Origin: an uncultured virus (IMG/VR IMGVR_UViG_3300005336_000020)
Lineage: Duplodnaviria; Heunggongvirae; Uroviricota; Caudoviricetes
Strand: one strand, 5' to 3'
Length of the DNA: 64,000 nucleotides
Virus record (IMG/VR): IMGVR_UViG_3300005336_000020
The notes under the pieces were generated by a model. The model saw only the letters and a program-made list of their open reading frames with translations. It was not told the DNA's origin and searched no databases. Positions 2,776 through 62,488 of the stretch are shown here, piece by piece. The first letter of the stretch is position 1; each line of letters starts with the position of its first letter. Made by a program: the position numbers and the translations under genes.

Positions 2776-5700
2776 GTGGCATCGAGCTTCGATGCGACAG
2801 CTCGCATCAACCTGGACATCCGTGCCTTCGCCCAGGGCGCCCAGGCCGTCACGAAGTCCGGCGGCCAGATGGAGAAGGTCTTCTCCAACCTGAACACGGT
2901 TCTGAGCAAGGTCGCTCTCGTGGAGAGCGGCCTTGCCGCCAAGCTCCGCACCTCGCTCAGCGTTTACAACTCGATCACCTCGGCGACGAAGAACTACGCC
3001 TCTGCCGTTCAGGCCCTCCAGAAGAACGAGGCGAACAGCGCCAACGGTGCGAAGCTGATGACGCAGGCGTTCCAGCAGCTCCGTTCGGCACTCGCCTCGG
3101 TTCAGGGCCTGAGCGAAAAGGAGTACGCGCGCCTGTCTCGCACGGTCACCCTGTACGAGAAGCTGGCGAACGTAATCCGCACCCTGGCGTCGGCGCAGAA
3201 GAACATGTCGTCGATCACCCAGAACGCGATCCAGGCGGAGCAGAAGGAAGCCCAGGCCAAGCAGAAGGCGGCCGAGGTCGCCCAGCGGCTCGCACTCGAA
3301 GAGCAGAAGCTGGCTATCCAGCGGGAGAAGCTGGCCCAGTCGGCGCAGCGCATCGCCCTCCAGGAGCAGGCGCTGGCCGCCGCCCGCGCCCGGACCGCCC
3401 AGGCGACCCAGAGCGCCCACCAGTCGACGGTCTCCTACTCGGGCTCCACGTTCGCTCTGCGCAACACCGTGGGCGAGCTGGAGAGTGCCTTCCAGTCGCT
3501 GTTCAACGTCCTGTCGAAGGTGCCCACGGCGCTCGCCGGGGCGGCCATCTCGCAGGAGGCGGCGTTCGCCCAGGTGGCCCGTGTTGTCGGCGAGGCGGAG
3601 GCGGCTTCGGTCGGCCTGCTCGCGAGGTTCCAGGAGATTGCCCAGCAGGCGCCGATCTCCTTCGAGGAAGTCGCCCGCATCGGTCAGCTCGGTGCCGCGA
3701 TCGGCATCTCGGAACAGAACCTCGGTGACTTCACCGACACCATCGTGAAGTTCTCGCTGACCACGGGTGTGGCGGCGGACGAGGCGACGCTGCTCCTCGG
3801 TCGTATCGCACAGATGCAGGACGTTCCGATCTCCGAGATCGACCAGCTCGGCTCCGCGATCCTCGCCCTCGGTACCGCGTCGGCCGCGACCGACCAGGAG
3901 ATCCTGCGCGTCAACGCCTCGATCGCCACCGTGTCGAACCTGTTCGGTCTCACCGCCCAGCAGACGGCCGGTCTCTCCGCCGCCCTGGCCACTCTCCAGG
4001 TCCGGCCCGAGCTGTCGCGTGGCGCTCTGACCCGTGTGTTCAACGAGCTGTCCACTGCCGTCTCCGACGGCGGCACCGAGCTGAGCAAGCTGGCCAAGGT
4101 CATGGGTATGACCGACAGCGAGGTCTCGAAGCTCTACAACAACCCGGCCACCCGGGGCGACTTCCTGCTGGCCTTCATCCAGGGGCTGAGCCGGGCCGCC
4201 GGAGCGGGCGGTGACGTCCAGGGCGTGCTGCGCGAACTCGGCGTCAACGCGGTCCGCGACATCGACGTGTTCTCCCGTCTGGCCAACAACGCCGACATCG
4301 TCAGCGAGTCCTTCGACCGGGCGAACCAGGAGTTCGCCAAGGGCACCGAGCTGAATCGGCAGTCCAAGGGCATCTACTCGACCACAGCGGCCGAACTCCA
4401 GAACCTCTCCGACGCCTTCCAGACGCTGCTCGCCACGCTCGGCGGACCGCTGGCCACGGCCATCGGTTCTGTCGCAGGCAGCCTGGCCAACGTCATCGGC
4501 TTCCTCGCGCACCTCGGCCCGGTCGTGCCGATCGTCGGTACCCTCGGCGCCCTGGCGGTCACGGCCGCAGCCGGGTGGGCTCTCTACCAGGTGGCCCTGT
4601 CCAAGACGATCCAGTCCCTGATCGCGGCCCGCGAGCTTCAGGAGCGCCTGAAGGTCAGCACGCTGAGCGCTCGCGTCGCGCTCGACATCTACCGCAACGG
4701 CTTCCAGGGCACGACGGCCGCGCAGGCGGCGGCGGCCAACTCCCAGCGCCAGCTCACGGTGAGCACGGAGGCCCTGTCGACGGCGCTGGCCGCGTCCTCG
4801 ACGACCATTCGAGGCTACTCGCTGGCGGCGGCGCAGTCGGCGACCGGCCTGAACGCGATGAGCACCGCGAGCCTCAACGCGGTGCGTGGTCAGGACGCCC
4901 TGTTCGCTTCGACGCTGGCCACGCAGACCTCCATGCGCCAGCTCAGCGCTCAGGCCACGGCTTCCGCGCTGGCGATGGCCAACGTCTCGAACGTCAACCG
5001 CAACCTGGCCCTGACACAGGCGCAGATCTCGAACTCCTCGCGCATCTTTGCCGGTCAGACGGCCATCGCCGCGACGGCGGTCGCCGGGCTGAACACGACG
5101 GAGGCCCGCGCCGTCCCGACGACGAACCTGATGTCGGCCTCGATGCGCAACGCGGCGGCGGCCGGTGCGCAGATGGGTGCCGGTATGGGAACGGCGGCTG
5201 CGGCGAGCACCGCTGCGGCAGGCGCCTTCACCCGGGCGACCACCGGCATCACGGCTTCCGGCCTGGCGGCCCGAGCGGCGGCGTTCGCCTTCGGCCCCTG
5301 GGGTATCGCCATCGCCACGGCGGGCATCCTGCTGGGCCCGCTCATCGGCAAGATGTTCGACTTCCGCTCGGAGTCCGAGAAGATCGCCGACGCGGCATTC
5401 GAGGCGAGCGGCGGCACGCAGGCCCTGGCCAACGCGATCAAGGCCGACACCGACGCGGCGGTCCTTGCGGCCGGTGGCGTCAGGCAGTACAACGCGGCCA
5501 TCAAGGACGGCTCGAAGAGCGCCCTGGACGCCATCGGTGTCTACCGCACAGTCACCACCACGAAGGGCGACCTGGCGGATGCCGACGTGCGCTCGGCCGA
5601 GGCGGCGCGTACCGAGGCCAAGGAGCGGCTGCGGGCGATCGAGGCCACCAAGGGATCGAAGGAGGCCCTGGAGGAGCAGGCCAAGGGGCACGGCACCGGA

Positions 5701-36088: not shown

Positions 36089-36322
36089 TTTTCCCTCACC
36101 TTCCCTGTGGGGCCGCCCTCCAGCGACCCCACAGATTCACCGGCCGGGACCGGCGGGCTTCAGTACCGGCAGCCCGTCGAGGTCGTCGTCCTTCTGGAAC
36201 ACGACTCGTCCCCTTTCCAAGCGGCTCGTTCGTCCGCTTCGTACCTTCGGCCGGATGCGAACCGACTTCCGGCCGGGATGAACCCGGCCGGGCTGCCACA
36301 CGGCAGCGAAGGCCCTCGTGCA

Positions 36323-56435: not shown

Positions 56436-58127
56436 TCACTGCATCCACGGCCACGGCGCGTTCTTGCCCTGCTCCAGGAGCTGGATCAGACCGAAGCTCG
56501 CATCCGACAGACCGCCGAAGCAGTGCCGGTTCGTGCCGCCGGTCTCCAGGATGGAACCGGCGTAGCCCGCCATGTTCCACAGGTAGACCGGGACGCTCTT
56601 CGGGATCAGGTCGTCGATCCGCGTCTCCGGCATGCCGTACGTGCGCCCGCCCATGTTCGACGGGAGCCAGCCCGGCCGCGACTGCTCGTCCGTGACGATC
56701 ACGACGCGGTTGAACTCGCTCGTGAAGTTGTCCTTCACGGCACGCGGGATGTCGGTCCCGTTGATCGACGGGCCGAAGCTCTCGACGATCTTCAGGACGC
56801 TCGCCCCGCGCGGCACGTCGACCGGGCGCGAACCGGCGCCGCCACCCCGGCTGTTGTAACCGCTGTACGCCTGGTCGCCGCCGAACTCGACGAGCTTGGC
56901 GTCCTGCGCCTTCACGGCCAGCGCCGCACCGAAGAGCGCCGCCTGGTCGGCCAGCGTGATGTCGCTCTTGTTCGGCGTCGAACCCCACATGCCCGGGAAC
57001 ATCGACGGGCTGCGGTCCACGAGGATCAGGGTCTTCCCCCGCAGGGTCGGAACCAGCTCCAGGGAGCCCGCCAGGCCCCGCTCCAGGGCGTTGCCCCAGC
57101 GCAGCGACGACAGGGCGCGGTAGGCCGACAGGAAGCGGTACGGGAAGAGCCGGGCCTTCCGCACCCGCTCGCCGTCCGAGAGCACCTTGGCCACGATGTC
57201 GGCCGAGGCGTCGGAGATACCCTCCTCGTCGAAGTTGCGCAGGTTCTTGATCAGCGCACCCGGCGCCATGGTCGGGATCATCGCCTCCCACAGCAGCTTC
57301 TTCTCGACCTTGCCACCCAGCTCGGACAGGACGTCCTCCCAGGTGAGACCGGCATCCTTGAGCACCTGCGGCGCGATGAGACCCGAGCCGTAGATGTACT
57401 CCGCCGACGCCTTCTTCGGGACGCTGGCCGCCGCCTGCCGCCACTCGCGCTGGTTGCGCGTCATCGACAGGCTCGGCGTGATCGCGCCGCCGTGGCCGTG
57501 GCGCCGGTCGAGGATCAGCCGGAACAGGTCCGACTGCCACTGGGCGCTCGGCACCGGGTGGACGATGTCGATCACGTCGGCGAAGCGGTACGCCCGGCGG
57601 GCCGAGTCGTACTTGGCGTACGAGTACTCCGTGTACAGACGCGTCACCGCGCGCTTCAGGCCGCGCTTGACCGCCTGGTAGCGCTTCGGCCACGCCTTGC
57701 CCGCGATCGAGAACCAGTACGCGATGAACTCGCCCGGCTCGTCGGCCCGCTGGAGCACGCCGTCGACCATGTCCTCGACACCGTCGTAGCGGTGCTGGTC
57801 GCAGAGCGTCTTCGCCGCCTCGGCCGCCGCGAGCAGCGACGTGGTGCGCATGTAGCCGTCGGTGCGCAGCCACGGAAGCATGTGCGTGACGTGCCACTGC
57901 TCCAGCAGGGCGGTGGCGTGCAGGAGGTCGACGTAGCGCTCGTTGCGGTCGTGAGCGCGCTCGTAGAACGTGTCCTTGGTGACGAGGTTGGACACCGAGA
58001 CCAGGTAGAGGTCCGACAGCGGGCTGCGGGTGAAGCCGCTTGCGCCCTCGAACGTCTTGGTCGTGCCCTCTGTCGTCACCTTCGAGGTGACGCGCGGCTT
58101 CGTCGTCGGCTTGTTGAACGTTGCCAT
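56436..58127 (-). CDS. rsr: Ro60/Rsr-type TROVE-domain RNA-binding protein with C-terminal vWA
   Basis: LYLVSVSNLV..DTFYE, WLR...MRT, LQRADEPGE, KYD, WEAMIPTM...ALIKNLRN, RLFPYRFLSAY (TROVE); LVDRSPSM MIDAS, VTDEQ, WNMAGY (vWA). Confidence 0.93.
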   Translation of the reverse strand: MATFNKPTTKPRVTSKVTTEGTTKTFEGASGFTRSPLSDLYLVSVSNLVTKDTFYERAHDRNERYVDLLHATALLEQWHVTHMLPWLRTDGYMRTTSLLAAAEAAKTLCDQHRYDGVEDMVDGVLQRADEPGEFIAYWFSIAGKAWPKRYQAVKRGLKRAVTRLYTEYSYAKYDSARRAYRFADVIDIVHPVPSAQWQSDLFRLILDRRHGHGGAITPSLSMTRNQREWRQAAASVPKKASAEYIYGSGLIAPQVLKDAGLTWEDVLSELGGKVEKKLLWEAMIPTMAPGALIKNLRNFDEEGISDASADIVAKVLSDGERVRKARLFPYRFLSAYRALSSLRWGNALERGLAGSLELVPTLRGKTLILVDRSPSMFPGMWGSTPNKSDITLADQAALFGAALAVKAQDAKLVEFGGDQAYSGYNSRGGGAGSRPVDVPRGASVLKIVESFGPSINGTDIPRAVKDNFTSEFNRVVIVTDEQSRPGWLPSNMGGRTYGMPETRIDDLIPKSVPVYLWNMAGYAGSILETGGTNRHCFGGLSDASFGLIQLLEQGKNAPWPWMQ

Positions 58128-58156
58128 GACCCTTCTTCCCTTTCCCTGAAAATGCG

Positions 58157-58187
58157 AAAACCCCCTGTCCCGGGTGGGAGCAGGGGG
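58157..58187 (-). terminator. Intrinsic terminator between the Y-RNA array and rsr
   Basis: Minus strand CCCCCTG...CAGGGGG followed by TTTT. Confidence 0.65.
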
Positions 58188-58201
58188 CGCATCTCGATGT
58201 A

Positions 58202-58379
58202 TGTGTGGGGTGCCCGGCCAACAGATAGGCCCCGGTGGTTCTTTCGAACCTTCCTCGACCAACGCTCTGCCAATTGAGCTATCCACGAGCACGCTCGCAG
58301 ATCAGGACTCGAACCTGAAACATTTGGTTCCACTGTGAAGTAACCGTTGCCAAGACGCTCCGGGCACCTCACCCACACA
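58202..58379 (-). ncRNA. YrlA-like Y RNA with a complete circularly permuted tRNA domain
   Basis: Closing stem; T arm UCAGG-UUCGAGU-CCUGA, then looped acceptor stem UCUGCGAG/CUCGUGGA, then D arm UAGCUCAAUUGGCAGAGC; ACCAA/UUGGU stem; adjacent to rsr. Confidence 0.85.
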
Positions 58380-58384
58380 CCGAG

Positions 58385-58550
58385 TAACAGAAGATCCAGA
58401 GGAGTCACCGGCCAACAATGCGAGCCCCGGTGTCTGCCAGTTATGCCATGCGTCGGCAGCGACGGGATTCGAACCCGCCCTCAGTTTCTTTTTCCAGAAG
58501 AAGTAACCGTTGCTCAAAACGCTCCGGTAACCCTTCTGGATCTTCCGTTA
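58385..58550 (-). ncRNA. Second Y-RNA-like unit with a degenerate tRNA domain
   Basis: Same scaffold motifs; T arm GCGGG-UUCGAAU-CCCGU and D-loop remnant UGGCAUAACUGGCAGAC; long closing stem AAGAUCCAGA/UCUGGAUCUU. Confidence 0.75.
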
Positions 58551-58630
58551 TGCGCCCCGGCCAACAAGATGGCGCCCGGTGTGTTCTCCGCATGATGAAG
58601 TAACCGTTCGCACTAACGCTCCGGGGTGCA
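58551..58630 (-). ncRNA. Third, minimal (80 nt) Y-RNA-like unit lacking a tRNA domain
   Basis: UGCACCCCGG/CCGGGGCGCA stem with the shared CCGGAGCG, AACGGUUACUUC, CACCGGG and UGUUGGCCGG motifs. Confidence 0.7.
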
Positions 58631-58636
58631 GATAAA

Positions 58637-58666
58637 ACATTACGGGATCCTGCGAGGGGATCGCAA
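58637..58666 (-). promoter_or_regulatory. Promoter TTGCGA-N18-TAATGT for the Y-RNA array
   Basis: The -10 element ends about 6 nt before unit 3; contains the TGCGA-N5-TCGCA palindrome. Confidence 0.6.
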
Positions 58667-58671
58667 GTCTT

Positions 58672-59163
58672 TTAGTACTCCTGCGGGGCGAGGATCCACG
58701 AGGCCCGCTCCTGCGTGGGCTCCATCCACAGGGCCCGCAGCGCATGGTGCAGGTAGCCGTCGTCCGGGAAGTCCACCCCGGGGATGTGGAGGTTGGGGTT
58801 CCACTCGAAGTTCGGCGTGATGCAGACCGGGGACCAGTCGTCGGCCCGGTACACCGAGCCCGTCAGCGCGAGGCCGTAGAACTGCGTGTTGGAGTGGCCG
58901 AACGTGATGATCTCCATCGAGCACCGCTCCTTCATCAGGGCCTCGGCGTTCTCGCGGGTGATCTCCTCCTCGGGCACCTCGTCGGCCAGCAGGACAGCTC
59001 GGCGCATGTGGTACTCGTACCCCTCGCCATCCTCGTCGGCCTCCATGTCGGCCTCGGCTTCCGTGAGCCAGTCCGGCTCGAACTCGTCGGCGTTCTTGAT
59101 GGCCCAGTCGCCGTCGCTCGGCACTCCCAGGCTGTACCCGTAGAACAGAACCGCCATCGACAT
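58672..59163 (-). CDS. Hypothetical acidic protein
   Basis: AGGAG RBS; 163 aa. Confidence 0.6.
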   Translation of the reverse strand: MSMAVLFYGYSLGVPSDGDWAIKNADEFEPDWLTEAEADMEADEDGEGYEYHMRRAVLLADEVPEEEITRENAEALMKERCSMEIITFGHSNTQFYGLALTGSVYRADDWSPVCITPNFEWNPNLHIPGVDFPDDGYLHHALRALWMEPTQERASWILAPQEY

Positions 59164-59223
59164 GTCGACTTATCTCCTGTACGACAGAGGGGGCCCGGCT
59201 GGGCCCCCTCGGGAACGTGCTGG

Positions 59224-59412
59224 TCAGGCGCTGATGTCCTCGCCGTTCTGCGACTTCTGCTCGGCCTGGCGCGACTGCACGGCCATCTCGCTCACCGTGC
59301 CCCCGTACTGGCCGGAGATCGTGCGGTACGCCTCGGCGGTGTGCCGCACATCGTCGGTGTCCAGGCTGGGGTGTGCCGCCTGGACGATCCTCTCGCTGGG
59401 TCGCTGTGCCAC
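59224..59412 (-). CDS. Small hypothetical protein
   Basis: GGGAG RBS, GTG start. Confidence 0.45.
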   Translation of the reverse strand: MAQRPSERIVQAAHPSLDTDDVRHTAEAYRTISGQYGGTVSEMAVQSRQAEQKSQNGEDISA

Positions 59413-59426
59413 TTCGCGTTCTCCCT

Positions 59427-60173
59427 TCAGACGCGGACGATGCCCTGCTGGCGGGCCTGCGCCAGCCAGGTGGGGAACTCGGTCATGAGCCGGTTGTACA
59501 GGGTGCTGTCGGTCATCGTGGTGGGATCGGTGCCCACCGCGAAGAAGTCCGAGTTGTCGATCGGCCGGTACTGCGGGACCGGGATGTCGTCGAGGCGCTG
59601 GAGGAAGCCCAGGCCGTCCTCGTCGTCGTAGTCGTACGGGCGGTCCTCGCCGAAGCCCACGAACTGCCAGAAGATCGGCAGCGTGGCGTACTGGCAGATC
59701 CGCTGGGCGGCGGCCTTCTTGTCCCACGGCGATCCGTCGGTCTGGAAGATGACGTAGGCGGGGACGCTCTTGCCGCTGGACTGGTAGTGCCGCACCACGG
59801 CGTCCATGGCGACGGTGTAGTCCGTGCCGCCCATCTGACCGAGCTTGGCGTGCGCCTTGGCGATCTTGCCCTGGTGCTGCCCGAGCACCAGCTCGTCCAT
59901 GCCCTTCAGGGTGTGGTCGAAGAACACGACCGGCACACGGCCGTCGTCCTCGAAGTGGGCCGCCATGCCCAGAATCCGCTCGGCGAAGTACTGGACGTGG
60001 CCGTGGCGGTAGTGACCGCGATGCGGGAAGTCCATCGAACCGGAACGGTCGAGCACCAGGTAGACGGCCGCCCGCTCGCCCTCCAGCCCGTGCTTGTTCG
60101 CCGCGAACCCGGCCTTCTGGTACGGCCTCTCCAGGTCGGGAGCGATGTCCCGGATTTTCTCTACGGTGATCAT
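59427..60173 (-). CDS. vWA-domain protein (TerF-like vWA)
   Basis: VYLVLDRSGSM MIDAS, GGTDY, IFQTDG, LPIFWQFVGFG, DNSDFF. Confidence 0.85.
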   Translation of the reverse strand: MITVEKIRDIAPDLERPYQKAGFAANKHGLEGERAAVYLVLDRSGSMDFPHRGHYRHGHVQYFAERILGMAAHFEDDGRVPVVFFDHTLKGMDELVLGQHQGKIAKAHAKLGQMGGTDYTVAMDAVVRHYQSSGKSVPAYVIFQTDGSPWDKKAAAQRICQYATLPIFWQFVGFGEDRPYDYDDEDGLGFLQRLDDIPVPQYRPIDNSDFFAVGTDPTTMTDSTLYNRLMTEFPTWLAQARQQGIVRV

Positions 60174-60199
60174 TCTGTCTCTTCAGACCTTTCCGAGGG

Positions 60200-60388
60200 T
60201 CAGCGCTTCTTGACGGGTCGGGCCCACTGCTCCGGCGGAACGCCGCTCATCCTGGCCTGCGGGCGCTCGGGAACCTCCGTGCGCGCGAGCTGACTGGAGC
60301 CGTAGCTGCCGATGGAGTGGGCCTGCGTTGCACTGGGGCCCGAGTCCACCTGCTCCGATGCGGCATCCAGGGCGTCGGCGTCAGACAT
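60200..60388 (-). CDS. Small hypothetical protein
   Basis: GAAGG RBS; 62 aa. Confidence 0.4.
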   Translation of the reverse strand: MSDADALDAASEQVDSGPSATQAHSIGSYGSSQLARTEVPERPQARMSGVPPEQWARPVKKR

Positions 60389-60519
60389 ATGCACCTTCCT
60401 GCCAGGCGAGCAGAACCTGCTGCTCGCGGTACTCGTCCAGTTCCTCTCGCGAGAGGAATGTGATTCCGTCCTCGCGGATGACGACCGGCGCCTCCGCCTT
60501 CTTCTCCTCACCGTTCACG

Positions 60520-60638
60520 TGTGCACGACGGGATTCGAACCCGTGGGCTATCCAGAGATTCCCAGCTCCAGCCAGCCGCCTGCCTCCACCCCTGGGAGGG
60601 ATTCAGCAAGCCCCTTTAGGCCGCTCAGGCACATGCAC
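60520..60638 (-). ncRNA. Class II (Ser-like) tRNA-shaped RNA with expanded anticodon loop
   Basis: Acceptor GUGCAUG/CGUGCAC, D arm CCU-GAGCGGCCUAA-AGG, T arm ACGGG-UUCGAAU-CCCGU; anticodon stem GCUUG/CAGGC enclosing 24 nt; long variable arm. Confidence 0.7.
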
Positions 60639-60722
60639 CGCCGGACCCGTTAGTCCGGCCCAGGTTCCGCTTTCAGGAGTTCTACGCGGAACCGTCCGAT
60701 TCATCTTCCACTCCAACCGGAG

Positions 60723-60807
60723 AGCCCATGACGGGATTTGAACCCGCGTCTCCATCCGCTGGCATGATCCAGTAGGACGATGTGCTTGGCCGCTACACCA
60801 CATGGGC
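60723..60807 (-). ncRNA. Class I (Glu/Gly-like) tRNA-shaped RNA with expanded anticodon loop
   Basis: Acceptor GCCCAUG/CAUGGGC, D arm GUGU-AGCGGCCAA-GCAC, T arm GCGGG-UUCAAAU-CCCGU; anticodon stem UCGUC/GAUGG enclosing 19 nt with hairpin CUGG-AUCAUG-CCAG. Confidence 0.75.
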
Positions 60808-60961
60808 GCTCGGTGTCCTGCCGATCACCGAGCGGGCGGATTCCGTGGCGCCGGGTGCCACCCGGCGGTGCCTCCTCCACGAAACCCTCTTTGGCGTGCA
60901 CCCCGCCGCCGACTTTCTCAGCCGAAAGCGGGGGTAAAGCGGACCTGTAATTCAGGTCCAG

Positions 60962-61035
60962 TTGGCAGGGAGAGATTTGAACTCTCGACCTCGGGATTAT
61001 CAGTCCCGTGCTCTAACCATCTGAGCTACCTGCCA
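60962..61035 (-). tRNA. tRNA-Ile(GAU), CCA not encoded
   Basis: Canonical cloverleaf: UGGCAGG/CCUGCCA, D GCUC/GAGC, anticodon CGGGA-CUGAUAA-UCCCG, T GAGAG-UUCAAAU-CUCUC. Confidence 0.92.
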
Positions 61036-61146
61036 GTGATCCATCCGGAAGCGTGTCGGACCGCCTCCGGTGGATCGGTGCGCCGAGCCGGGCCGTAACC
61101 GGCTCGGAGCGTTTCGCCCGGGTGTCGGATTCCCGAACTAAGTGAA

Positions 61147-61176
61147 ACTCTACCGGGTGTTGCTGGCCTAGGTCAA
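61147..61176 (-). promoter_or_regulatory. Promoter TTGACC-N18-TAGAGT overlapping the GGCCTAGGTC palindrome, driving the tRNA cluster
   Basis: Close to the Streptomyces HrdB-type consensus. Confidence 0.7.
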
Positions 61177-61186
61177 CCGATCCGGG

Positions 61187-62488
61187 TCAGACCGCGAGCC
61201 GGAAGTTCTCCCCGTCCGCAACGATCAGGCCCTCGCGGGTGAACGACCGCAGGAAACGACTGGCCTGCGTCGCCCCGCAGCCCGTGTGGGTCGCCAGGAG
61301 AGCCGGGGTCCAGACGGCCTGCGGCTGGCTCCGCAGCACCCGCAGCGCGACATCCCGGGGGTACTTGCCACGGCCGTGGTCCGGGTGCGCCAGAAGGGCC
61401 ACCATCTCGTCCGTGACGGTCCAGGTGCGCACGAGGTTGGGGCCGTGCACGTTGAGGTAGCCGTGCCCACGGAAGCGGGGGCCGCGCGGAAGGAAGTGCG
61501 GTTCCACTCCGGCGCCCGGACCGAGCACGGTGTCGGTGTTCTGCGGGGTGTTGACGCGAAGGCAGAACGAGAAGTCGAAGTTCGTGCGGATGCCCGAGGT
61601 GATGCCCCGGTCGTCGCCCGAGCGGAGCGGGTTCTGGGTCATCCACATGATGATGATCTCGCGCGAGCGGCCCTGGCTGGACAGCTCGGTGAGCTTCTGC
61701 ATCACGGACTTGTCGGGGCCTTCGAGGAAGGCGTACTCCTCGTCGCCCTTCGGCGCCTTGCCGCGCCGCTTGTCCTCGTCGATCACGGCCTGAAGGACGG
61801 AGTAGCCCTCGTCGATCGGAATGAGCCTGCGCGGGCCGAGCTTCAGATCCCACTTGGAGATCCCGAGCTTGGCCATCTGGGCGGCCCGGTCCTCCATTCG
61901 GGCGTGCTCGCGCTCGATCATCTCGATGATCTCTTCATGGGTCACGGCGCAGGTGCAGATGCCGCGCCAGACCGTGGCCTCCTCACCCTTGCCGTCGATG
62001 AAGCCGCCCAGTTCCTCGTCGGGGTGGACGACCGCGCGGGCCATGAGGGCGCGCGTGGACCAGCTCTTCCCGGAGCCGGAGGCGCCGCCGACCAGCAGGC
62101 GTTCGTTGCGCGGGACGTCGACCTCTTCACCCGTGACCGTGTCGAGTCCGAGCGTGGTGATGTCGGGGTGCCAGAACATGTCCAGCTCGTCGGTGATGTA
62201 CCGGGTACGAACCGCGAACAGCACGCGGGAGGACCGGCCGCCGGGGGACAGGTCGCTCAGGTGCTCGTCGAGCACGTCGAGCATGGCGCGTATGGCCTGG
62301 TGCTTGACACGCAGCTCCTTGAGCATGTCGCGCCCGTCGAGCTTGAGCACGGCGACAACGCCGGACTCGGTCAGCTTCGCGGAGTCCAGGTTCACGCCGC
62401 GCAGGCCGCGCGCCTTCGCCTGCGGGTTCCAGTACTCAGGCGTGAGCAGGTCCAGCAGGCGCAGTTCCTCTTCAGTCGCTACCAGCAC
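61187..62488 (-). CDS. FtsK/SpoIIIE-family ATPase (TraB-like) with C-terminal wHTH
   Basis: LLVGGASGSGKS, IDGKG, IPIDEG, GRSREI...TQNP, IRTNF and GHGY motifs. Confidence 0.85.
   Translation of the reverse strand: MLVATEEELRLLDLLTPEYWNPQAKARGLRGVNLDSAKLTESGVVAVLKLDGRDMLKELRVKHQAIRAMLDVLDEHLSDLSPGGRSSRVLFAVRTRYITDELDMFWHPDITTLGLDTVTGEEVDVPRNERLLVGGASGSGKSWSTRALMARAVVHPDEELGGFIDGKGEEATVWRGICTCAVTHEEIIEMIEREHARMEDRAAQMAKLGISKWDLKLGPRRLIPIDEGYSVLQAVIDEDKRRGKAPKGDEEYAFLEGPDKSVMQKLTELSSQGRSREIIIMWMTQNPLRSGDDRGITSGIRTNFDFSFCLRVNTPQNTDTVLGPGAGVEPHFLPRGPRFRGHGYLNVHGPNLVRTWTVTDEMVALLAHPDHGRGKYPRDVALRVLRSQPQAVWTPALLATHTGCGATQASRFLRSFTREGLIVADGENFRLAV

Follow-up and report, generated by a model that had tools for sequence, protein, structure and literature searches.

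The window analysed here, the whole 64,000-nucleotide (nt) stretch of virus record IMGVR_UViG_3300005336_000020, shows 100% identity to the Streptomyces phage Frankenweenie (OQ921725.1, 200 kb). Frankenweenie has been described as a lytic phage of cluster BM that is without an integrase (PMC10652959), and a count of 15 tRNAs is the sole statement about tRNAs in the parts of that genome announcement consulted. Our subject is a small RNA gene on the minus strand of the window, at positions 60723-60807, which we refer to as tRL1. It belongs to a cluster whose members lie on the same strand in the order FtsK-like gene, promoter, tRNA-Ile, tRL1, spacer and tRL2 (a second tRNA-like RNA); these are followed, again on the same strand, by small open reading frames and a vWA-TerF-like gene, a YrlA-like Y RNA, a terminator-like hairpin and a gene for a Ro60-like protein with a TROVE domain. 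The ordinary tRNA array of the phage lies elsewhere, at about 133-136 kb of the Frankenweenie record. The comparisons described below indicate that tRL1 is very probably a non-decoding tRNA mimic that is maintained by selection. The gene and its unusual part are as follows.

60723-60807, minus strand: tRL1, an 85-nt class-I tRNA-like RNA gene (ARAGORN, Rfam tRNA, GenBank annotation and covariation)
60757-60775, minus strand: 19-nt replacement of the anticodon loop, made up of C-U-A, a CUGG/CCAG stem with its apical loop, and C-G (sequence and fold)

In GenBank, tRL1 is gene 154 of Frankenweenie and is labelled "tRNA-OTHER / tRNA-Undet(ac)". The Rfam tRNA model (RF00005) matches 60723-60807 on the minus strand with 44.6 bits (gathering score 29; E of 3e-6 for the window), and in that alignment 17 nt stand at the five anticodon-loop positions of the model. 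ARAGORN called no transfer-messenger RNA at the window, and there was none among the Rfam matches. The original prediction, which gave the site without a strand and missed both tRL2 and the phage Ro60/Y-RNA context, had proposed a check with tRNA finders: ARAGORN calls a tRNA body at 60722-60807 (minus strand) but gives it no identity, reporting "tRNA-???" with an impossible two-base anticodon (ac).

Read from 5' to 3', tRL1 is GCCCAUG-UG-GUGU-AGCGGCCAA-GCAC-A-UCGUC-[CUACUGGAUCAUGCCAGCG]-GAUGG-AGAC-GCGGG-UUCAAAU-CCCGU-CAUGGGC-U. It has an acceptor stem of 7 base pairs (bp; GCCCAUG/CAUGGGC), a D stem (GUGU/GCAC) with the loop AGCGGCCAA, a variable loop of 4 nt (AGAC), a T arm (GCGGG-UUCAAAU-CCCGU) and the discriminator U, and thus every part of the body that had earlier been listed as intact is present on the minus strand. 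The anticodon stem (UCGUC/GAUGG, 5 bp) surrounds exactly 19 nt, CUACUGGAUCAUGCCAGCG, within which lie CUGG (60769-60772), the apical loop AUCAUG (60763-60768) and CCAG (60759-60762). RNAfold draws the CUGG/CCAG inner hairpin on tRL1, in agreement with the fold first proposed for these 19 nt. The stability of the single sequence is modest (z of -1.87; 10 of 200 shuffles fold equally well) and, because the fold of tRL1 taken alone is only modestly above that of shuffles, the case made here rests on comparison with relatives.

For this comparison we used 17 distinct orthologous sequences of tRL1 from related phages and metagenome contigs. The sources were the isolates JustBecause, Kela, Kradal and Satis, IMG/VR contigs (reached via the hairpin pattern and via the neighbouring FtsK-like protein) and metagenome contigs. 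(Individual loci carry L numbers; the fragments L065, L068 and L070-L072 lay outside this survey.) Extraction of tRL1 required 7 of 7 acceptor pairs and 5 of 5 T-stem pairs, with the best-pairing register chosen for the D and anticodon stems, and all 17 loci searched for tRL1 in that way passed. Each orthologue occupies the same place, downstream of tRNA-Ile (or of tRNA-Met in L048 and L067). Changes on both sides were found at 12 of the 21 cloverleaf pairs, and non-standard combinations occupy 4 of 357 cells, as compared to an average of 41.9, and never fewer than 33, in 500 shuffles. The tertiary pairs behave in the same manner: U8:A14 is invariant, and the Levitt pair 15:48 covaries (G-C in 13 sequences and A-U in 4, with no mismatches). 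Moreover, when the 12 sequences that carry the hairpin were aligned with MAFFT, 98.7% of cells were paired, as against 40-52% with the partners slid by 1-3 columns, and 7 pairs were changed on both sides.

We also considered the idea that tRL1 is a decaying tRNA pseudogene, or an artefact of assembly or annotation, as might be supposed from the failure of tRNA finders to assign an identity and from the modest single-sequence fold. The arms of tRL1 are intact in the genomes of 7 isolates and also in viral and metagenome contigs of independent origin, and the retention of pairing through compensatory changes across these relatives argues that decay and artefact are excluded. We therefore regard this explanation, which the covariation data contradict, as extremely improbable, and the earlier claim that tRL1 is not a product of random decay holds.

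The tRL1 family seems to be confined to cluster-BM-like phages of soil. When tRL1 was used as a blastn query against 50,697 phage records, the only full-length matches were those in Frankenweenie, JustBecause and Kela, and the exact hairpin pattern occurs in viral contigs in 8 stretches, 2 of them tRL1 of close relatives and 6 unrelated. In 185,579 species genomes a pattern combining the hairpin with the T stem gave 63 stretches, none of which (0 of 63) runs on into a T arm; these look like chance matches. Other Ro60-bearing phage contigs hold YrlA-like RNAs or ordinary tRNA arrays, and tRL1 was not found in them. ARAGORN called no tRNA at all in L058 and L069, two loci with a relative of the FtsK-like protein.

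The orthologues differ in the length of the segment that the anticodon stem encloses. It is longest, at 19 nt, in 11 of the sequences; L046 has 18 nt, L067 has 16, L047 has 8, L048 has 7 (with A33 and C37) and L053 has 6. In Kradal and Satis, whose records annotate the gene as tRNA-His(gtg), it is reduced to 3 nt, a GUG triloop. A 7-nt loop with U33 and a purine at position 37 is found neither in the window nor in the orthologues, so that canonical anticodon loops number 0 among the 17, and no two forms imply the same anticodon. The calls of tRNA finders across the relatives are correspondingly diverse: "???", His(gtg), Val(cac), Arg(tcg), Pyl(cta), (gagg) and (actg). Judged by its sequence, tRL1 is not a decoding tRNA, given that it passes the score of the tRNA model and fails on the features of the anticodon loop. 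Purifying selection on the body, together with an alignment of homologues in which no relative has a normal 7-nt loop (0 of 17), favours the non-decoding tRNA mimic that was among the possibilities raised by the original prediction. When the body of tRL1 was compared with 82 distinct tRNAs of phage arrays (31 at first), the best matches reached about 75% identity and were divided among Asp, Thr, Gln and Glu. (A supposed likeness to the "augmented D helix" of tRNA-Glu was dropped because the best matches scatter over isotypes.)

The same prediction had allowed for a pre-tRNA with a small intron, and accordingly for a working tRNA in which removal of about 12 nt and rejoining of the ends would restore a 7-nt loop. 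The anticodon loop is the usual site of tRNA introns, as in archaeal tRNA genes with bulge-helix-bulge introns and in bacterial tRNA genes with group I introns in their anticodon loops; the central helix of the bulge-helix-bulge motif is 4 bp, the same length as the inner helix of tRL1; and an RNA ligase gene lies beside Ro60 in JustBecause and Kela. Several observations argue against this explanation. The insert of tRL1 provides extra anticodon-loop nucleotides as those introns do, but its length falls far below that of a group I intron, and no intron family was among the matches of the Rfam scan. As had been claimed, no clear bulge-helix-bulge motif is evident by inspection: proximally there are 3 unpaired nucleotides 5' of the 4-bp helix and 2 nucleotides 3' of it, and the helix is closed by a 6-nt loop. 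Excision at 37/38 would leave the anticodon ACU on a class-I body, with C33 in L045 and L046, and excision of 12 nt yields no sensible anticodon that is common to the orthologues. Those orthologues that are free of the insert have loops of 3, 6 or 8 nt, or A33 and C37, and share no anticodon either. Finally, the JustBecause-type ligase is unmatched in the Frankenweenie and Kradal records (it is present in 1 of the 3 records; a splicing endonuclease was not sought). Taken together, these findings make a mini-intron highly improbable, and we have abandoned this part of the original prediction.

If the extra segment is not an intron, its pattern of conservation may indicate what it is for. The 12 hairpin-type sequences share the consensus C-Y-A-CUGG...CCAG-C-G, with 13 positions invariant in 12 of 12; the C33-G51 pair, A35, CUGG, CCAG and C50 are among the invariant features. 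The outer anticodon stem of the same sequences has 3 of its 5 pairs changed on both sides, and the apical loops take the forms AUCAUG, UUAAUU, UAAUU, GUAAGG, GUAAAG, GUCAAG and GUCGAG. A variable apical loop beside an invariant stem argues against the recent spread of a young segment, and it argues for sequence-specific recognition of the hairpin stem and its flanks by some partner. Full complements of the apical loop within its own locus, in the nine loci with type-A Ro60 (see below), were scattered and had no common position, and thus gave no indication of a target in cis.

A partner of a different kind is envisaged if tRL1 is a decoy or inhibitor that acts independently of Ro60, with a body that binds a host anticodon nuclease, modification enzyme or tRNA-binding toxin and an anticodon end that is uncleavable or binds more tightly. 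Phage tRNAs counter tRNA-cleaving defences, and an intact body with an abnormal, lineage-variable anticodon end is what an arms race predicts; published work on phages, tRNAs and anticodon nucleases also exists. That the hairpin stem does not vary among divergent phages points instead to a conserved, and not a fast-evolving, partner. In addition, the target of such a decoy is not identifiable, and the isotype of the body is not assignable, so that no particular tRNA appears to be mimicked. We consider a decoy of this sort, which would include the nuclease decoy named in the original prediction, possible but quite improbable.

The partner that we favour for the hairpin of tRL1 is suggested by its neighbours in the cluster. 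These are listed in the order in which they would be transcribed.

61187-62488, minus strand: FtsK-like gene
61147-61176, minus strand: promoter, sigma-70-like, TTGACC-18-TAGAGT (1 site found; shuffle mean 0.5)
60961-61035, minus strand: tRNA-Ile(GAU), an ordinary tRNA and the first RNA gene of the cluster (ARAGORN; Rfam, 75.3 bits)
60808-60833, minus strand: hairpin abutting the 5' end of tRL1 (by eye)
60639-60722, minus strand: structured spacer between tRL1 and tRL2, 84 nt (RNAalifold on 8 sequences)
60520-60638, minus strand: tRL2, a class-II tRNA-like RNA, 119 nt (RNAalifold on 9 sequences)
58194-58384, minus strand: YrlA-like Y RNA, with a long basal stem and a permuted tRNA-like domain
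58149-58193, minus strand: terminator-like, G+C-rich hairpin with a U tract (RNA fold only)
56436-58127, minus strand: gene 147, a Ro60-like (TROVE) RNA-binding protein of type A (Pfam TROVE, 1.2e-13; PHROG 850; annotation)

The Ro60 gene, which is matched by PHROG 850 ("RNA-binding protein"), lies on the same strand as tRL1 and 2.6 kb downstream of it, and the synteny is held in relatives: the order FtsK-like gene, promoter, tRNA-Ile or tRNA-Met, tRL1, tRL2 (where present), Y RNA and Ro60 recurs in the isolates and in those contigs that reach far enough. The Ro60 proteins of these phages fall into two types, with about 35-38% identity between types and at least 62% within them; Frankenweenie and JustBecause have type A and Kradal has type B. 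Among the distinct sequences for which Ro is known, the hairpin type of tRL1 is accompanied by type A in 10 of 10 cases and the short-loop type by type B in 4 of 4, the hairpin form thus occurring with type B in 0 of 4. (These counts omit L061 and L066, which are of the hairpin type, and L067, which has the 16-nt form.) In the case of L053, the Ro type was predicted before its sequence was retrieved, and the prediction, type B, was correct.

The Ro types are mosaic relative to the neighbouring FtsK-like gene, both in the isolates and in loci that include L002, L003, L047, L048, L053 and L057. The FtsK-like protein of Frankenweenie is 87% identical to that of Kradal and 47% identical to that of JustBecause, whereas its Ro protein is 37% identical to that of Kradal and 73% identical to that of JustBecause. 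Likewise, tRL1 is surrounded by Kradal-like DNA (81% identity from the FtsK-like gene to 60325, and again in 59403-58594), whereas the tRL1 hairpin of Frankenweenie is that of JustBecause, and its Y RNA and Ro block are also JustBecause-like. Thus, the hairpin appears to follow the Ro block and not its own flanks. We take the association between the form of the hairpin and the type of Ro60 to be suggestive, that is, a lead and not a proof.

A number of observations weigh against the interpretation that tRL1 is a selected mimic with a role beside Ro60. Shared descent could account for the link to Ro type: the sequences are related and do not form a series of independent contrasts, and as few as one or two events may lie behind the link. 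The hairpin is dispensable in whole lineages, as the GUG triloop of Kradal and Satis illustrates, and the inner stem is invariant, so that covariation neither supports nor tests it. All 4 mismatched cells of the cloverleaf comparison fall in the anticodon stem (L054, L060, L066 and L061). No Ro-binding motif of Y RNAs is recognisable in the 19 nt, and the Rfam YrlA model gave no match to tRL1 at E <= 1. Moreover, neither ARAGORN nor Rfam finds tRL1 in L057, where Y-RNA-like modules stand directly after tRNA-Ile. Lastly, among contigs from X15, X16, X18 and X4 that were compared with the locus, those of X15, from a close relative, cover 60569-60753 and 60830-61071 and leave the core of tRL1 uncovered; X15 is an RNA library, such libraries may hold DNA, and its contigs show neither ends nor strand.

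The most obvious point of comparison for tRL1 is provided by the YrlA-type Y RNAs, which are tRNA mimics encoded beside Ro60 in bacteria and phages according to the parts consulted of the relevant reports (Chen et al. 2014, PMC4201824; PMC7824862). Like YrlA (RF02553), tRL1 combines a D arm and a T arm resembling those of tRNA with an acceptor-type stem, shares its strand with a nearby Ro60 (TROVE) gene, does not appear to decode and is borne by a phage. In YrlA the tRNA order is circularly permuted to T arm, closed acceptor hairpin and D arm, and the two ends pair into a long basal stem that binds Ro. In contrast, the parts of tRL1 follow the order of a normal tRNA; its acceptor ends are free, and it is the anticodon arm that is closed and extended. 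Since the permuted order and the basal Ro-binding stem are both missing, its sequence indicates that tRL1 is not a YrlA. A true YrlA-like RNA is present in the window 2.3 kb past tRL1. The Rfam YrlA model matches it at 58256-58326 with 30.8 bits, under the gathering score of 69 (fold z of -2.97), and matches the homologous RNAs of relatives with 32-42 bits. GenBank gene 148, "tRNA-Pro(tgg)" (58293-58383, minus strand, 91 nt), which ARAGORN calls too, overlaps the YrlA-like RNA and is more likely a part of it than a tRNA. A second GUUACU motif upstream of the Y RNA, at about 58385-58395, hints at a second Y-like module. In L057, which has a type-B Ro and an FtsK-like protein of 43% identity and from which both tRL1 and tRL2 are absent, positions 4840-5240 (plus strand) hold three modules with the GGUUACUUC motif directly after tRNA-Ile; two of these have permuted tRNA-like domains, and the middle module has a D arm similar to that of tRL1 in L053 and L047.

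With ordinary phage tRNAs (RF00005), tRL1 shares the cloverleaf, U8:A14, G18G19, a T loop of the form UUCRAAU, a model score above threshold and a position clustered with tRNA-Ile; unlike them, it has no 7-nt loop, no frame of U33 and purine 37, no shared anticodon and no assignable isotype. Engineered tRNA scaffolds with a foreign hairpin on the anticodon arm, mascRNA and the tRNA-miRNA units of gammaherpesviruses are cases in which tRNA-like bodies serve as stable carriers that can be processed. As in tRL1, a tRNA body there carries another RNA, in settings that are eukaryotic, viral or artificial.

We propose that tRL1, a conserved RNA of the Streptomyces jumbo phages of cluster BM, is co-transcribed from the cluster promoter with tRNA-Ile, the spacer and tRL2, folds into the L-shape of a tRNA, is released by RNase P and RNase Z as a tRNA would be and then receives CCA; we infer the fold, the excision and the CCA addition from the fact that the acceptor, D and T arms and the 15:48 pair have been kept by selection. 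The tRNA body would supply stability and processing, and the bulged 4-bp hairpin, with its invariant stem and flanks, would be a sequence-specific docking element for a partner, which would most likely be found within the particle formed by type-A Ro60 and the Y RNA. To the whole of this explanation, a mimic with a docking hairpin that probably acts in a Ro60 type A/Y-RNA particle, we give about an even chance. The separate claim that the role of tRL1 is tied to the Ro60/Y-RNA module is one that we hold tentatively, judging it somewhat less probable than its opposite. More speculatively, and in our view unlikely to be right in full, tRL1 could be an un-permuted, tRNA-processed "Y-like" partner of Ro60, in which the remodelled anticodon arm serves as the docking site for one matching type of Ro60. 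Phage Ro particles would then be built from tRNA-shaped adaptors (tRL1, tRL2 and the YrlA-like RNA), maybe linked via CUGG/CCAG, that steer the particle to host machinery which handles tRNAs.

If tRL1 is made and stable, it would represent a natural tRNA body that bears another RNA element at the anticodon position, and, if the proposal is correct, Ro60-associated tRNA mimics would extend from the permuted YrlA to normally ordered, tRNA-processed RNAs. Natural hairpin and triloop forms that track the two Ro60 types offer a simple genetic handle, one that could help to show what the Ro60 particles of bacteria and phages act on. We found nothing on tRL1 in the portions of the literature consulted, supplements not covered (PMC4201824, PMC7824862, PMC10690425, PMC11662646 and PMC10652959 included). 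The cluster-BM annotations tRNA-OTHER, tRNA-His(gtg), tRNA-Ser and tRNA-Pro(tgg) probably do not represent decoding tRNAs; tRNA counts for cluster BM, and inferences about codon usage, would then be inflated.

The second mimic, tRL2, starts 85 nt downstream of tRL1 and measures 118-120 nt across relatives. Of its 37 predicted pairs, 20 have compensatory changes in the RNAalifold analysis, and its loops are invariant. As in tRL1, the anticodon loop of a tRNA body in the same cluster is replaced by a closed rod, here formed by a covarying 5-bp stem between an internal loop (GAA/GGR) and a CCCA loop, and CUGG and CCAG recur. It differs from tRL1 in being of class II, with an oversized variable arm of about 31 nt, in having an inner stem that covaries and in occurring with both Ro types, where the tRL1 hairpin occurs with type A only. 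The Rfam tRNA model matches tRL2 with 34.5 bits in Kradal and 36.3 bits in L045; in the window tRL2 is called neither by ARAGORN nor by the Rfam scan at gathering score, and part of it is annotated as "tRNA-Ser" in JustBecause. It is absent from L048. The loop UCCCAG of the anticodon extension is complementary to the loop CUGGGA of the variable arm, and CCAG and CUGG are invariant there in 9 of 9 sequences (alignment columns 43-47 and 74-78); one position at the flank of this loop-loop pairing changes on both sides in Kradal, from C-G to U-A, and is mismatched in JustBecause and L047. The same 4-mers are common to the inner stem of tRL1 and the loops of tRL2, and immediately upstream of tRL2 there is a conserved CUGGG. 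Such complementarity might allow either a kissing contact or a choice of alternative pairings.

The spacer between the two mimics is itself structured: RNAalifold predicts 20 pairs, 10 of them with compensatory changes, that include an 8-bp stem (GGUUCCGC/GCGGAACC) and a terminal hairpin. A pseudoknot pairing is possible, the candidate (by eye) being GGAGU/ACUCC, which becomes GGGGU/ACCCC in L047 and L053. JustBecause-like relatives have one more hairpin inside this spacer. The stem of the hairpin at 60808-60833 varies in sequence among relatives, and its loop often contains GGCAGG (by eye).

This arrangement bears on a further explanation, namely that tRL1 and tRL2 are processing handles and nothing else: punctuation for RNase P and RNase Z that frees the spacers and the downstream mRNA, with the anticodon disabled to avoid translation. 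It fits this idea that tRL1 and tRL2 alternate with conserved structured spacers, that the parts read by the enzymes (acceptor, T arm and elbow) are conserved and the anticodon end varies in length, and that gene 153, as annotated, starts 1 nt past tRL2. In addition, the hairpin that abuts the 5' end of tRL1 in all relatives could shield the upstream fragment after the RNase P cut (by eye). A disabled loop should drift, yet the 13 hairpin positions of tRL1 do not vary, and the inner stem of tRL2 covaries beside loops that are likewise held constant. Nor would a handle give any reason for the match with Ro type. We think it unlikely that processing is the only function of these RNAs, and we continue to favour a mimic that docks through its hairpin.

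With regard to gene 153 itself, which is small and conserved, the annotated GTG start is at 60516-60518 (minus strand), 1 base past the discriminator of tRL2, and the relatives L047, L048 and L053 have a purine-rich ribosome-binding site and a later start. The start may be mis-set in Frankenweenie, or the mRNA may be leaderless after processing of the tRNA type.

Within 57900-61400 no promoter-like site was found besides the one at 61147-61176, a motif that is also present ahead of the tRNA-Ile of relatives. A simple terminator scan of the minus strand of the same interval found no terminator and did not flag 58149-58193. The leader between promoter and tRNA-Ile (61036-61146, minus strand) contains two hairpins with a loop motif, UCCGAC, that is common to Frankenweenie, JustBecause, Kradal and L047, and a third with GGUUAC in its loop (all by eye); these may be protein-binding or antitermination-type elements. 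Elsewhere in the window, gene 106 is called "tRNA-Sec(tca)" (36241-36313, minus strand, 73 nt) by both ARAGORN and GenBank; it has no Rfam tRNA or tRNA-Sec match even at E <= 10 and is probably a false call. Finally, an RNA-library contig of a close relative joins 59423 to 60188 and skips the vWA-TerF-like gene (59424-60187), which is also absent from Kradal and JustBecause, so that its absence in relatives represents an insertion/deletion polymorphism of the locus.

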